Origin: an uncultured Bacillota bacterium | GTDB taxonomy: Bacteria > Sysuimicrobiota > Sysuimicrobiia > Sysuimicrobiales > Segetimicrobiaceae | Length of the DNA: 64,000 bases | Assembly (NCBI GenBank): GCA_963804645.1 | Contig: CAWDRG010000017.1 | Location: forward strand, 288,001 to 352,000 | Direction: 5' to 3' | Part shown: one piece after another, positions 8,737 through 13,195 of the stretch | How the letters are laid out: each line of letters begins with the position of its first letter | How positions within the stretch are numbered: position 1 is the stretch's first letter | Program-made: the position numbers and the translations under genes | The notes under the pieces: generated by a model | What the model was told of the DNA's origin: nothing | The model's input: only the letters and a program-made list of their open reading frames with translations | Databases searched by the model: none

Positions 8737-9183
8737 CGCAAGATTGCATTTGCCTCGACCCGCGATGGAGTGTTCCAAATTTATATGACGAACGTTGACG
8801 GCTCAGCCGTAATCCGCCTGACCAATCCGCCCGATGCGACTACGAGTCCCGCATTCAGTCCGGATGGCAAGATGATCGCGTTCCACCGTCTCGGCGACTA
8901 CGACACCTCACAGATCTACATCATGAATGCTGATGGCTCCCACATGACTCGTCTGACGAATGCACAGGGAGGAAATGAAGACCCTACATTCAGCCCCGAT
9001 GGCTGCACCGTCGTATTTGGCTCGAATCGCAGCGGAGGGTCGCTCCAGATCTACGTGATGAATGTCGACGGATCGACTGTCAGGCAGCTGACCGGTGCTT
9101 CTGGAAATAGTTGGGCTCCTTCGTTCAGTCCCGATGGCCGTAAGATCGCATTCCAATCCGACCGTAACGGGAATGATCAGATC
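8737..9183 (+). pseudogene. TolB-like/PD40-repeat protein fragment, truncated at both ends
   Basis: Repeated P.FSPDG..IAF / QIYVMN.DGS units. The frame begins mid-repeat (RKIAFASTRDGVFQIY) just after the thiolase stop and breaks at NDQI, where the ISL3 end begins (9184). Confidence 0.75.
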
Positions 9184-9222
9184 GGGACTTCAGGAACCCG
9201 GGTGGGTTGCATAGAGTTCTAA
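9184..9222 (-). mobile_element. Detached 3' end of the ISL3 element (last codons LELYATHPGS* and terminal repeat)
   Basis: Minus strand reads tta gaa ctc tat gca acc cac ccg ggt tcc tga agtccc and joins in frame to the ISL3 ORF at 12366 through a shared TCTAA. Confidence 0.75.
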
Positions 9223-9357
9223 TATGAATGGGCCGAAGGGAAGACTTCAGGAACCCAAGAGGTGTGTGCGCCGATTCAGGCATCCGAAGTGAGGTTGTTT
9301 GAAACCGCGGCTCGGGATTGAGCTCGGCAGTGAAGGGACTCGATGTCGTCCAGCTCC

Positions 9358-9918
9358 CTAAGGAGTACCGCCTCGTATGCGATAGTGCAAGTGGATTACT
9401 CCGGTGCCGACACGGCGCGTCTCAAGGAGTTCGAGATTCCGTCGTAAGGCGGCTCGGAATGCCGGCTTTCCGCCGCCGAAGATCACCGGGTTGAGAAACA
9501 GGTGACATTCGTCGACGAGATCGGCTTCGAGCGCAAGCCCCGCAAGCTCGGCGCCGCCAATGCTGATGTCGTGCTCCGATTCCCGCTTGAGCTTCCGAAT
9601 AGCCGCGAGGTCGAAGTCCCGCTCGACACGCGTGTTGCGTGTCGTAGCGCCTGTCAGCGTTCGTGAAAAGACGATCTTCTCGGGCTTCTGCCAGATCCGT
9701 GCGAAGTCGCGGTGTTCGGGCGGATAGCCCTCCACCGGCGCGTCCCAGTAGGCCATCGTCTCATAGAGCCGCCGCCCATAGAGATAGGTTCCGACGGGCC
9801 GCAACAACTCAATGACGAACGGGTGTACTTGATCGGGATTGTCCCAATCGAAGGCACCGGTTTCGTCCTCGATGTAACCGTCAAGTGCCGTATTGGTGAT
9901 GTAGATCAACTTCGACAT
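9358..9918 (-). CDS. Dihydrofolate reductase-family / RibD C-terminal domain protein
   Basis: MSKLIYITNTALDGYIED, YLYGRRLYETM, KIVFSRTL, IGGAELA, LVDECHLFLNPVIFGGGKP. Confidence 0.9.
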   Translation of the reverse strand: MSKLIYITNTALDGYIEDETGAFDWDNPDQVHPFVIELLRPVGTYLYGRRLYETMAYWDAPVEGYPPEHRDFARIWQKPEKIVFSRTLTGATTRNTRVERDFDLAAIRKLKRESEHDISIGGAELAGLALEADLVDECHLFLNPVIFGGGKPAFRAALRRNLELLETRRVGTGVIHLHYRIRGGTP

Positions 9919-10233
9919 ACGAAAGGTTTCGTGCGGCATACGCATGACGACCTCCTCCGCATCGTCGCGTAAGACCTCGCCACGAGCGCGCACTTGCTGG
10001 TACATGCCAATTCGTTGCGCGAGGTGCCGCCCACCGGACTCCCGACGACTAGACCATTTCAATCACGTTAAAATCTAGGCAAAAATATTTGAAATTTTGA
10101 GAGCGTCGCAAGTTGCGTGGGTCCCGAGAGTCGACTGGGCTCACAGATCGGTATCGTGCGGTTGCCAGGCCCTGAACGCCGGCCGGCCTTCAAGCACAAC
10201 ACGTCTCCCGCTCCCCACCGGCGGAGGGGCCGA

Positions 10234-10623
10234 TCATGCGTAGCTCTGCTCTGCGATGAGCCGGGTAGGGTAGCCGAGAATGGTGCGGACGGTCCTGGCG
10301 TCTTTGGCAACGTAGACGAAAGCGTCGCCGTCGATCTGGTACTGGCCGGTCCACCCGATGGTGAAACTGGTGGCCGTATCTTCCACCTGCACTGGCAGAG
10401 GATCGCCCTCGCGGGCCACCGGCGTGGCGAGTTGATCGGCAGGATCCAAGACCCAGGCGTCGCCCGTCTCGGAGGAGAAGAGGACGAGTGGCCCGACGGT
10501 GATGATCCGACTGTCGTAGTCGGCGGCGCGGCGTTGAATGTACTGCACTTCGTCGGCGAGCCGCCACCTCGCTCCGTCCACCAACCTGGTCTCGTGGCCC
10601 TGCTTGCGCGATCGCCGAGCCAT
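10234..10623 (-). CDS. Hypothetical protein (129 aa), divergent partner of the putative mobile-element protein
   Basis: Globular beta-rich composition (GPLVLFSSETGDAWVLDPAD...FTIGWTGQYQIDGDAFVY), GAGG-type RBS upstream, lies inside the TCTA-bounded unit. Confidence 0.65.
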   Translation of the reverse strand: MARRSRKQGHETRLVDGARWRLADEVQYIQRRAADYDSRIITVGPLVLFSSETGDAWVLDPADQLATPVAREGDPLPVQVEDTATSFTIGWTGQYQIDGDAFVYVAKDARTVRTILGYPTRLIAEQSYA

Positions 10624-10675
10624 GCGCGTGTGTCCACCTCGGGTCCTATCTGCGGCGCGGGAGGGACCGATCCCG

Positions 10676-12295
10676 ATGGAACGATTCTACCAATTGTTTG
10701 GCAAGTTCCTCGTGTTTGTCTACCATTGTTTCGATCGCATCGTGATCAACGGCTACTTGACCGGCCTGATGCGCCCGGAGAATGCGGTGTATTTTTTCCG
10801 AGACGTCCTGGGACGCCGCGCCATCACCAAAGAGGTGTTGCGGCAGCGGACCACCGATTACGCCCACTGGGTCGAGGCCTACGCGCGGAATCACCATGTG
10901 CCTATCGAGTGGGCTGCGAAGGGGGTCCGGAAAGAAGACTATGTGCGGCCGAGGCTGCGCCGGATGGAGCGTGCGCACCGGTATGGGGTCTACTTCATCT
11001 TCAAGAGCATGGAACAAGGCCTGACGTTTCGTTCCATCATGCCCAAGTTTCCCACTGCGGATCCCGATTACCGCATCCTCCGCCCGCACCGGAGCCGCTT
11101 CACGCACTACTACTTCTACCTCCGGGACCACACCCTTGGGCCGATGGTGGTGCGGGTCGCCTCGTTCGTGCCGTTTCATACGACCTACTACCTCAACGGG
11201 CACTCGTTCATCGAACAAGAGCTGACCCGAGTCGGGCTCGCCTTCCGCAAGGACGATAATGCGTTTCTGGCCGTCGCAGATCCGACCGCCCTCCAGGCGG
11301 CCGCCGATCGCCTGAGCCCAACCGTCATTCAGCATCGGCTTGACTACTGGACCCTCGTGCTTGGCCCGAAGTTTTCTCGACGCGAACGCCAAGCCATGAT
11401 GCTGCGCCGGTTCTACTTTCTCCAACAGGTCGAATACTGCCGAAACTTCATCTTCAAGCGGTGCTTCCCGATCCACACGCTTTTTGAGCGGTCCTGCGAG
11501 CTCGGCCTCAGCCAGTTGACCGCGCACCAGCTCTCCGAGGTCTTCGGCCTACGCCTGACCAAGCGGCTCAAGGGGAAGTTGCACACCACGCTCGAGCAAC
11601 TCGCACAAGGCCATCATATCCTCCGGATCTATTGCAAGAGCGCCTTCCTCCGGCAGTACGAGAAGTTCGCCATGTTCCTGCGCAACGAGCTCTGCTCCAA
11701 TAACCTCGCCGACTTCCAGCTGAAGAAAGGCCTCGCGCATCTGGGCGCCGTGCGGGAGACGTTTCTCGCCATCACCGACCGCTTCGCCGACGCGCAGGCG
11801 CAGTGGCTCAACGTCCACGTGGAGTTTCCACTCCTCCAACGCGTGGCGCTCCCGATTCAGGTCGGTACCGCCAAGGTGCCGGGCATCAAGATTCACGACG
11901 CCCGCATGATCCGCCTCATGGAAGTGTTGCTGGACGGGCGCACCATCATCGGTGGTCAGCGGGCGACAGAACTGCACCAGGCTGTCGTGACTCGATTCCA
12001 TCTCTCCGCCGAGCGGTACGGGCTCAACCAACTCCGGTACGACCTCCGCAAGCTCCGGGCGCATGGGCTCCTCCAACGGGACGGCCGCCGCTACGCATAT
12101 CGCCTGACCGACAAGGGGCTCCGCGTCGCTCTTCTCTTCCTGCTCTTCCATCAGCGACTCTGCGGACCTCTCGCTCACAGCCTCTTTCATCACCGGCCCG
12201 ATCCCAAGACCCAGCTCAACAGTCCTCTCGAAGCGGCCTACCACAAAGCCGATGCGGCGATTCAGGACATCATTCAGCTGTTGCAGGCTGCTTGA
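10676..12295 (+). CDS. Unclassified putative transposase / replication-initiator-like protein (539 aa) with C-terminal winged helix
   Basis: GGGAGGG RBS. Basic and aromatic protein with FDRIVINGY, HYYFYLRD, YLNGH, QVEY, QYEK...LRNE, and YDLRKLRAHGLL...YRLTDKG (wHTH). Sits inside an insert that splits another IS. Confidence 0.7.
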   Translation: MERFYQLFGKFLVFVYHCFDRIVINGYLTGLMRPENAVYFFRDVLGRRAITKEVLRQRTTDYAHWVEAYARNHHVPIEWAAKGVRKEDYVRPRLRRMERAHRYGVYFIFKSMEQGLTFRSIMPKFPTADPDYRILRPHRSRFTHYYFYLRDHTLGPMVVRVASFVPFHTTYYLNGHSFIEQELTRVGLAFRKDDNAFLAVADPTALQAAADRLSPTVIQHRLDYWTLVLGPKFSRRERQAMMLRRFYFLQQVEYCRNFIFKRCFPIHTLFERSCELGLSQLTAHQLSEVFGLRLTKRLKGKLHTTLEQLAQGHHILRIYCKSAFLRQYEKFAMFLRNELCSNNLADFQLKKGLAHLGAVRETFLAITDRFADAQAQWLNVHVEFPLLQRVALPIQVGTAKVPGIKIHDARMIRLMEVLLDGRTIIGGQRATELHQAVVTRFHLSAERYGLNQLRYDLRKLRAHGLLQRDGRRYAYRLTDKGLRVALLFLLFHQRLCGPLAHSLFHHRPDPKTQLNSPLEAAYHKADAAIQDIIQLLQAA

Positions 12296-12365
12296 GCGGG
12301 ACTCGGTGCGCCCTTCTTGAAATCTTGAAGTGCTTCTGTCGAGGAAAGAGCGGCTAAGAATCTAA

Positions 12366-13195
12366 ACCACCACAAGGAAAGAGGATCGACCGCATGAAGC
12401 GGGCCTCATTGCGGAACCCGCGTGCCTGATACTTGAACCACTGGATCTTGCTGTTCACGGATTCGCGAGCGACGTTCGTTATCGGGATTCGCAGATAGGT
12501 GAGGATGTTCTCGATGTGCCGCGCGATCACGCGGGCGACTTCCTTCATGTGCCGGAGCCTCGATCGAATCGCCCAGGCGTACCAGTCGGTGAAGAACGTG
12601 CGGGCCGCTCCGATGTACGTGTAATCCCACAGTTGCGTGAAGGTCTCTTTCATGGCCCACGCTCGGCCTAGCCGCTCATGCGCTTTACGAAGCTTGGCGA
12701 ACTCGATGCGCTCGGACTGCGTCATGCTCTCGGGCCGCCGTAGCCACCGATAGCGCGTTCGCTTGAGGGTCGAATCGCTGCGCCCAGCCGCACGGCGTTC
12801 TAGGTCAACAGCGTGCGTGAGGTACTTCATGACATGGAACTTGTCGAAGACGATCTTCTCTTCGGCTTCAGGCAAGTTGTCGAGTGTGGATTCGATGTAG
12901 GCCGGCCACATGTCCATCGCCACGCCGGCAATCCCGGCGAGATGCTGCTCAGAAAAACTCTCCCAGAAGGCATCGAGGGTCTCACGCGTGCGGCCGGAGC
13001 CAACCCAGAGGAACCTCGCTGGCGTCGAGGTCCGTGACGATCGTGACGTACTTGTGCCGCTTCTTGAAGGACTTCTCATCGATGCCGATGTGCTTGACGA
13101 TCCGGTCTTTCCGAAGCGCAAGGCCGCGATCGATCGCCCGCGGCATAATGCCGTCGATTTGATCCTAGCTCAGCCGCAGGGTTCGCGCGACCGCG
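12366..13195 (-). pseudogene. ISL3-family transposase pseudogene (5'-truncated, internal stop, frameshift, 3' end displaced)
   Basis: LS*DQIDGIM...IGIDEKSFKKRHKYVTIVTDLD in one frame, then VAMDMWPAY, IVFDKFHV, ITN...ESVNSKIQ...ARGFRN...FPCGGL in another. Confidence 0.9.

Follow-up and report, generated by a model that had tools for sequence, protein, structure and literature searches.

Insertion sequences of the IS200/IS605 and IS91/ISCR groups are moved by HUH tyrosine nucleases, have no terminal inverted repeats and unlike ends, insert next to a short specific sequence that abuts one end, and correspond to empty sites with one copy of that sequence. One-ended transposition in IS91/ISCR displaces one boundary and may mobilise flanking DNA. 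These are, by behaviour, the closest known elements to an insertion sequence (IS) that we describe here in a window of 64,000 nucleotides (nt) from an uncultured Bacillota bacterium (positions 288,001 to 352,000 of contig CAWDRG010000017.1, GenBank assembly GCA_963804645.1), to which all coordinates refer unless a contig or locus is named. The IS encodes a 539-amino-acid (aa) protein, whose closest known counterparts are the Rep_trans replication initiators and relaxases and the Rep-Arvir proteins. On a modest balance of probability, the locus is a decayed copy of an ISL3 transposase gene that was struck at a single CTA by nested insertions, the active one being a 2,287-bp IS with a TBP-fold nuclease as transposase.

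The Rep_trans/MOBT family (PF02486) comprises RepC/RepD of the pT181 family, RepSTK1, NicK of ICEBs1, Orf20 of Tn916 and the Rep proteins of filamentous phages. Rep_trans proteins, the commonest initiators of these phages, have a TBP-like fold (PMC13595969). The catalytic tyrosine stands on a β-strand, and the family motifs are N'(D), I (RxD), III (YxK) and IV (W/LxRxE) (PMC5714925); in RepDE, the metal ligands D46, D142 and E214 surround Y191, and R189 and K193 are required for religation (PMC4797284, PMC5714925). Rep-Arvir (DUF7845), from archaeal pleolipoviruses and plasmids, joins a TBP-like nuclease domain to a MarR-like winged helix, a fusion that its description gives as a defining feature of the group and as not seen in bacterial Rep_trans (PMC13107129). 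As these accounts present them, the known TBP-fold nucleases are all replication initiators or relaxases (PMC5714925, PMC13107129, PMC13595969).

The IS and its parts are the following:

10078..12364, + strand: the insertion sequence itself, 2,287 bp with one CTA included, with four copies in this genome and absent from a metagenome contig of the locus (X5)
10075..10077, + strand: left CTA, either a copy of the target or one member of a 3-bp duplication; all 78 unique left flanks have CTA before the left end
10078..10101, + strand: conserved left end GGCAAAAATATTTGAAATTTTGAG (family consensus GCCAAAnATATTTGAAATTT), containing TTGAAAT, with almost no variation in the first 24 columns across 19 of 19 diverse elements
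10234..10623, - strand: orfB, 129 aa, a conserved accessory gene divergent from the transposase gene, with a 45-65% identical open reading frame (ORF) at the same place in other elements
10676..12295, + strand: putative transposase, 539 aa, predicted to be TBP-like (resembling Rep_trans) over residues 1-380 and a winged helix over about 383-505, with a helical tail
12310..12364, + strand: conserved right end ...TTGAAATCTTGAAGTG...GCGGCTAAGAATCTA, from flank alignments and motif comparison

A BLASTN search of the whole genome (G000) delimits the repeated unit, which runs from 10074/10075 to 12353-12365 only. Its four copies, one in the window (contig C17), two on C15 and one on C10, are 99.6-100% identical and each encode the same 539-aa protein; aligned, their flanks read N-CTA/GGCAAAAATATTTG... 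and ...GCGGCTAAGAAT-CTA/N, the slash marking the element boundary. The two ends are unlike each other and, as the initial annotation had stated, no terminal inverted repeats were found over 10060-12380. TTGAAAT or TTGAAGT (TTGAAR) lies close to both ends in direct orientation, the right-end TTGAAATCTTGA being a direct repeat of the left-end TTGAAATTTTGA, and the right-end consensus of the family is TTGAAGTATTCTTGTTTA, about 13 variable nt and yAAGAAT-CTA (also given as ...TTGAAGTATTCTTG...yAAGAATCTA). Four left ends and three canonical right ends are present in this genome, where no solo ends or miniature derivatives were found. The fourth right end, in one copy on C15 (copy C, C15:378242-378260, locus L007), is aberrant: its 11 last nt CTAAGAATCTA are replaced by TGATCTA, with TCTA still terminal.

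Contigs from four public metagenome runs were compared with window positions 8900-12700. A 727-nt contig from a peat metagenome (X5, record 22) joins 10070 to 12359 and skips 2,288 bp; it matches 12359-12700 with 0 mismatches, reads ...CACGTTAAA-TCTA-AACCACC against the window, and has one TCTA where the 851-bp block that lies left of the IS directly meets the ISL3 body. It shows the IS site empty, either in its ancestral state or after precise excision. The contig represents an allele with one A fewer in an A-run, an allele that run X7 has in occupied form. No empty site was readable in relatives at loci L006 and L008 against seven genomes of the genus, where the flanks are 70-85% identical and on different contigs, and none of the 85 left ends in the loci examined abuts a right end, as it would in a tandem array or a circle.

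The element belongs to a very large family. The homolog search with the 539-aa protein gave at least 6,489 relatives at E≤1e-3 among 8,000 scored candidates, and an exhaustive search gave 6,163 representative clusters (50% identity) at E≤1e-3, 622 of them at E≤1e-30. All of the 120 best relatives listed are nameless or 'hypothetical', have no Pfam domain and lie mostly on contigs of 1.7-3 kb. When species genomes were compared, the best 80 of 419 stretches encoding relatives were kept; these 80 relatives, 66-71% identical, come from at least five phyla (Acidobacteriota, Nitrospirota, Verrucomicrobiota, Alpha- and Betaproteobacteria, and Armatimonadota), with Bradyrhizobium erythrophlei and Caballeronia choica among the Proteobacteria. 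Occurrence within the lineage of the window is patchy (6 of 41 relatives, and 13 of the 94 genomes of the phylum, a count that includes the unpublished genome G062, whose sequence went unused). Three metagenome-assembled genomes (MAGs) hold 10, 9 and 7 near-identical copies with sharp common boundaries and 99.6-100% identity within each genome, and the ends could be recovered by motif in most of the 52 loci examined.

Two size classes are apparent. The minimal form, found in Bryobacterales (1,750-1,762 bp), consists of the gene only, preceded by about 85 bp and followed by 50-60 bp, and has no other non-overlapping ORF, which shows that one gene suffices in this form. Longer forms of about 2,080-2,290 bp have in addition a second, divergent ORF of 120-129 aa, 45-65% identical across phyla; this orfB homolog is found in all variants of at least 2.1 kb examined and absent from the 1.75-kb variants, and no match in Pfam, a PDB profile search or ESM Atlas points to its function. 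The target was deduced from unique flanks, 78 on the left and 62 on the right, and reads a (-5, 50%), A (-4, 91%), R (-3, 83%), N, N and CTA, followed by R (+1, 96%). The element always appears as N-CTA-[IS...AAT-CTA]-R in a target A-A-R-N-N-CTA-R, and the (T)CTA ends that the initial annotation predicted for relatives are present in every copy examined. At one locus (L072, 2505-2547), the target CCTAAGGAT-CTA agrees with the right terminus of the element itself in 9 of 11 positions; the target consensus of the family otherwise departs from the right end at position -4. One MAG contig carries an 88%-identical partial copy (L063:1-581, the right-end-proximal 577 bp) about 2 kb upstream of a full copy. 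A distant subfamily is represented on the Mycobacterium riyadhense plasmid NZ_OY970457.1 (142750-149195, L143) by one intact copy and several 80-94% identical fragments of the region; the 27%-identical homolog there, annotated as hypothetical, is adjacent to two IS4-family transposase genes and a gene for a 553-aa hypothetical protein.

We are confident that these elements are a mobile, autonomous IS family with the 539-aa protein as transposase. The initial annotation had suggested that this protein represents a mobile-element family usually left as 'hypothetical', and homologs that are multicopy, share sharp boundaries and conserved ends, form the sole gene of the 1.75-kb element and reach at least ten near-identical copies per genome agree with that view.

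The protein itself has no sequence match in Pfam, NCBIfam, PHROG or PDB except weak winged-helix matches around residues 445-485. No DDE, HUH or recombinase family of Pfam or NCBIfam matches it, which upholds the earlier remark that it has no such signature, and PF02486 matches neither the window protein nor any other in this genome. Plasmid homologs in cultured bacteria (Rhodococcus, Mycobacterium, Burkholderia, Paraburkholderia) are annotated as hypothetical, one homolog is labelled an ArsR-family regulator because of its winged helix, and the ESM Atlas neighbours are nameless. AlphaFold models of the full-length protein (predicted local distance difference test, pLDDT, 85.4) and of the N-domain (pLDDT 88.2, predicted template modelling score 0.87) provide more information. 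Foldseek matched the predicted model with 4cij (probability 0.97) and 4cwe (0.92), and the viral models of BFVD gave 29 matches at E≤1e-3, many of them Inoviridae proteins. Among them are A0A345MNV4 (probability 1.00), identified as a Rep_trans initiator of Inoviridae, and a phycodnavirus TBP that a fold search with the archaeal initiator RepSNJ2 had also returned (PMC13107129). None of the 50 best structural matches of either model is a transposase, integrase or RNase H chain. The predicted fold combines a TBP-like domain of the kind found in Rep_trans and Rep-Arvir nucleases with a winged helix C-terminal to it.

Alignments reaching down to 23-24% identity, one of them with 17 sequences, contain 14 invariant residues (D20, R21, D151, G155, P166, N174, G175, N195, Q251, E253, Y328, K330, R336 and E338), with K/R326 and D194 invariant or nearly so. 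Predicted β-strands hold nearly all of these residues, often in i/i+2 pairs directed to one face of the sheet, which is long, antiparallel and two-fold pseudo-symmetric in the manner of TBP; the predicted strand 323-330 contains Y328, and the predicted strand 334-341 contains E338. Conserved polar residues on β-strands are also typical of Rep_trans/MOBT, which share the predicted TBP-like catalytic fold, and comparison by eye with RepC/D, made on the alignment without residue superposition and to be taken as a lead only, gives four matches:

F19-D20-x-I-x-I-x-G26 with F45-D46-x-M-x-I-x-G52 of RepC/D
K192-x-D194-N-A-F with R140-x-D142-L-A-F of RepC/D
K/R326-x-Y328-x-K330 with R189-x-Y191-x-K193 of RepC/D
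F334-x-R336-x-E338 with L210-x-R212-x-E214 of RepC/D

In this comparison, the RepC motif that holds D46 resembles the N-terminal F-D-x-hydrophobic-x-I-x-G of the 539-aa protein, and the order of Rep_trans motifs III and IV corresponds to its basic-x-Tyr-x-Lys followed by Arg-x-Glu. Rep_trans proteins also make a site-specific cut beside a protein-binding site, as would the IS enzyme. They differ in a catalytic domain about 130 residues shorter than the N-domain of the 539-aa protein, in the four-helix DNA-binding domain that RepD has in place of a winged helix, and in their location on plasmids, phages or integrative and conjugative elements, whereas the 539-aa protein belongs to a chromosomal multicopy IS in which no hairpin origin was found. 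The two-part architecture that defines Rep-Arvir is present in the predicted model, and fold searches with Rep-Arvir return the same giant-virus TBP and Inoviridae Rep_trans matches. Rep-Arvir is likewise unrecognisable as a Rep_trans relative by sequence (PMC13107129). Unlike the IS family, which is bacterial, chromosomal and without a DUF7845 match, Rep-Arvir is archaeal and viral, has a conserved downstream hairpin and a third, C-terminal α/β domain, neither of them seen in the 539-aa family, and serves circular-genome replication, as opposed to the transposition proposed here. We judge it somewhat likelier than its negation that the 539-aa protein is a TBP-fold tyrosine nuclease.

The IS lies within an ISL3 gene. 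The features that flank it are:

8770..9186, + strand: PD40/TolB-like beta-propeller gene, 3'-truncated (PF07676 PD40, E 7e-29), its frame continuing into the ISL3 end
9185..9222, - strand: detached ISL3 3' end, with the 10 last codons LELYATHPGS, a stop and about 5 nt of terminus, identified by translation and from the C-termini of relatives
9223-10073, no strand: 851-bp mosaic block in ISL3 at CTA, outside the repeated IS, single-copy in the genome and kept in the X5 contig without the IS
9242..9275, - strand: probable remnant of a second ISL3-type 3' end, reading ..RTHLLGS and a stop, from comparison with ISL3 tails
9358..9918, - strand: complete RibD_C (dihydrofolate-reductase-like) gene, 186 aa (PF01872, E 6e-16)
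12365..13188, - strand: decayed ISL3 transposase body (PF01610, E 2e-56; tblastn against the ISL3 copy on contig C22)

The ISL3 ORF (12354..13121, minus strand; PF01610, E 1.7e-56) ends in FPCGGLDS and a stop, the minus strand of 9190-9222 translates to LELYATHPGS and a stop, and TCTAA is present twice, at 9218-9222 and 12361-12365. The initial annotation had read these as an ISL3 gene split at TCTAA with LELYATHPGS as its distal tail, and both the translation and the C-termini of relatives bear this out. A search with the ISL3 fragment gave 349 longer proteins, and C-termini were compared for the best 29 of them (P0271-P0299): in all 29, which are full-length ISL3 proteins of mostly 404 aa with 59-85% identity, the conserved C-G/A-x-L is followed by ten residues, and those 80-85% identical to the fragment end in GGL(D/E)LY(A/P)THP(T/G)S. 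The C-terminus of P0272, GGLELYATHPTS, against the reconstructed GGLELYATHPGS, is one residue off GGL/ELYATHPGS (slash, the join). Since the relatives likewise have ten residues there, the join is not due to chance, and since independent metagenome contigs span both outer junctions (X1 record 2 over 9222/9223 and X10 record 14 over 12365), a misassembly at 9222 or 12365, which the initial annotation had named as a risk, is unlikely.

The split gene (12354..13188 plus 9190..9222) is an ordinary ISL3 member by PF01610 and NF033550 (E 8e-47, below the cut-off because the gene is truncated), with the DDE_Tnp_ISL3 domain and the usual GGL(D/E)LYP-type end, and it differs in being split, frameshifted, stop-bearing and without its N-terminal third. 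The body corresponds to about residues 187-461 of the 474-residue open frame of a 48%-identical ISL3 copy (contig C22; tblastn), about the first 186 residues being missing, and it contains one in-frame stop and one frameshift. This ISL3 copy is therefore dead regardless of the split and only the target of insertion. We considered 9240-9360 as its lost 5' end and rejected it, as tblastn with the full-length C22 frame gave no match there. The PD40-like sequence breaks off at about 9184-9186, where the ISL3 terminus starts. The second ISL3 type of this genome, 48% identical, ends in GGLDLYPLESR and a stop. A third ISL3-type element is present in two copies (C15:179289-179952 and C9:1381407-1382072) with different C-termini: one ends in ...PENAG and a stop, and the other continues from GGATCTATTATAGG for about 50 codons, a difference that looks like an insertion or divergence exactly at an ATCTA.

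The whole 3,143 bp between the two parts of ISL3 had initially been taken as one element, but only about 2,290 bp are repeated in the genome and 851 bp remain separately in ISL3; likewise, the gene for the 539-aa protein is the only ORF longer than 250 aa, as stated, but the insert also contains the 186-aa RibD_C gene and the conserved 129-aa ORF. The initial annotation thus recognised a real element with its borders drawn too wide, and was right about an unrecognised kind of mobile-element enzyme. The empty site that it envisaged was seen in the metagenome contig, although as a block/ISL3 junction and not as an intact ISL3.

The 851-bp block is composed of three parts. The ISL3-tail remnant (34 bp, 9242-9275) has the 14-mer GACTTCAGGAACCC in common with the main ISL3 end at 9188-9201. 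The RibD_C segment (9265/9273-9925) comprises the gene and some 90 bp of its 3' flank; four genomes from three other genera of the family (L115-L118) carry it at 93-95% identity, in a different context in each, and the six genomes of the same genus are without it. The third part consists of 148 bp. The block is bounded like an insertion of the family, the ISL3 target AGAGTT-CTA-A fitting the consensus and the block ending in ...TTAAAAT-CTA. Its left terminus (9223-9256), TAATATGAA...GACTTCAGGA(A/G)CCC, recurs with 84% identity at a contig start in another genus (G010:C106, L118:2-38), where position 9368 of the RibD_C region follows it immediately, with 111 bp fewer than in the window. A contig of run X1 (record 3, matching 9184-9347) spans the ISL3-tail/block junction with 15 differences in 164 nt (about 9%) and then has a different outer flank, which suggests that the ISL3 carrying the block has itself moved and may exist at another site or in another organism. 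As a separate observation, the RibD_C segment behaves like a horizontally moving single-gene cassette; an integron cassette was rejected, as the context alignment shows no sharp GTTRRRY-type boundaries. An indel allele of RibD_C is also found at 9540-9578, where a contig of run X1 skips 37 nt and has 5 other letters (GGCGG).

Most likely, the block is flanking DNA moved by the same chemistry, either with the IS or earlier at the same CTA. All 3,143 bp could have entered ISL3 at once, by a cut at the upstream CTA that carried along 851 bp of donor flank with RibD_C, the IS later being excised precisely in some cells. Removal of 9223-12365 restores the ISL3 frame exactly with one TCTAA, the ISL3 site AGAGTT-CTA-A suits the target consensus of the IS, the block is pieced together from unrelated sequences, as expected of captured flank, and the right end is canonical with only the left boundary displaced, as in one-ended transposition of IS91/ISCR. 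We nevertheless regard a single entry as unlikely: such an extended left boundary occurs in no other copy among the 85 left ends scanned, the block is single-copy with no donor site found, one contig shows ISL3 with the block but no IS, which is simplest if the block came first, and the ISL3-tail/block junction looks older than the 99.6-100% identical IS copies because its ~9% diverged variant stands beside a different outer flank. We favour, with reasonable though limited assurance, an order in which the block was there before the IS, which subsequently inserted at the CTA bordering the block.

A mechanism can be proposed that accommodates these features. The transposase would be neither a DDE nor an HUH enzyme nor a recombinase, but a TBP-fold nuclease of Rep_trans/Rep-Arvir type with a winged-helix DNA-binding domain that would bind the directly repeated TTGAAR sites. 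Tyr328, in the invariant K/R-x-Y-x-K of a predicted β-strand, may attack one and the same strand at the two boundaries, within CTA or after it, assisted by a metal held by invariant acidic residues, the candidates being D20, D151 or D194, and E338. With same-strand cuts at both CTA boundaries, the element would therefore move as one strand, lifted out or copied and rejoined beside a new CTA; the left CTA would then come from the target and the right CTA from the element, and orfB may act as an optional helper. An enzyme not homologous to theirs would thereby follow the scheme of IS200/IS605 and IS91. The IS family resembles those groups in its unlike ends without inverted repeats, in the single CTA at the empty site and in the possible movement of flank past one end, and it would be a member of neither, being set apart by the same trinucleotide CTA at both boundaries and by the winged-helix protein, in which Pfam and NCBIfam detect no HUH domain of the Y1 (IS200/IS605) or Y2 (IS91) kind and whose predicted fold is not RRM-like.

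Several observations weigh against this mechanism. CTA on both sides is equally expected from a 3-bp target duplication by staggered double-strand cuts. The motif likeness to RepC rests on comparison by eye, without residue-level superposition, and the spacing from tyrosine to glutamate is 10 residues in the 539-aa protein against 23 in RepDE. The N-domain aligned to ten RepC/RepD-type proteins by hhalign with a probability of 0.13, the Rep profile being narrow (members at least 80% identical), and no PF02486 or DUF7845 match appeared among 20 family members even at E≤1. The ends have no conserved hairpin (in RNAalifold predictions, the right end forms 0 pairs and the left end a single invariant stem of 4 bp), a proposal of two hairpins was discarded after pairing 65.6% of cells against 64.2% in shuffles, and orientation shows no bias relative to local GC skew (20 of 51 positive, p=0.16, a weak test). 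Since hairpins and strand bias are both expected of a single-strand mechanism, the failure to find them argues against a strictly IS200/IS605-like mode. We hold single-strand chemistry at CTA as a tentative proposal, marginally short of an even chance.

The same pattern might be produced by an extremely divergent DDE transposase of RNase H fold that makes staggered double-strand cuts and a true 3-bp duplication of CTA. CTA on both sides with a single CTA at the empty site resembles a classic duplication, and the protein does have invariant D, D and E residues. Known DDE insertion sequences of the IS5 and IS701 groups prefer YTAR targets. We consider a DDE enzyme very unlikely, however, given ends that are unlike and without terminal inverted repeats in every copy examined, the absence of any DDE family match in Pfam or NCBIfam and of transposase, integrase or RNase H chains among the 50 best structural matches, and the predicted placement of the invariant residues on a long antiparallel sheet with TBP-like pseudo-symmetry. 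That the 539-aa protein is instead the replication initiator or a DNA-binding regulator of a small integrated element moved by an enzyme in trans, as the roles of the known TBP-fold nucleases described in PMC5714925, PMC13107129 and PMC13595969 and the ArsR-family label of one homolog might suggest, is highly improbable, since the 1.75-kb form has no other non-overlapping ORF, the element ends lie directly beside the gene, the ten or more chromosomal sites occupied per genome are unrelated apart from about 5 specified bases, and the element crosses phyla with its ends intact, which makes a host-specific helper unlikely.

Full-text searches of the literature, which did not extend to ISfinder, returned no description of an IS or transposase with a Rep_trans/TBP-like fold. 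To our knowledge, the transposase classes described so far are DDE, DEDD, HUH, and the tyrosine and serine recombinases. It is conceivable, at slightly less than even probability, that this is the first IS family with a transposase from the TBP-fold Rep_trans/Rep-Arvir superfamily, in which Tyr328 makes single-strand cuts at CTA, with neither inverted repeats nor a true duplication and with occasional carriage of left flank. If so, the TBP-like Rep_trans fold would be an additional catalytic class of transposases and a second, independent case of a rolling-circle nuclease family yielding transposons, and the TBP-fold superfamily would parallel the unrelated HUH superfamily in its division into three branches, namely replication initiators, conjugative relaxases and transposases. 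With its short fixed target and asymmetric ends, the system is easily tested and, if the enzyme cuts and rejoins single strands at a defined site, it would be a candidate tool for DNA insertion. Thousands of 'hypothetical' clusters (the 6,163 representatives at 50% identity) could become annotated transposases, and the family would account for many ~2-kb assembly breaks in soil metagenomes. In the most novel view, which joins this to a TBP-fold transposase and which we advance cautiously as a little less probable than not, the family would rank with the most common mobile elements left unannotated in soil and peat bacteria.

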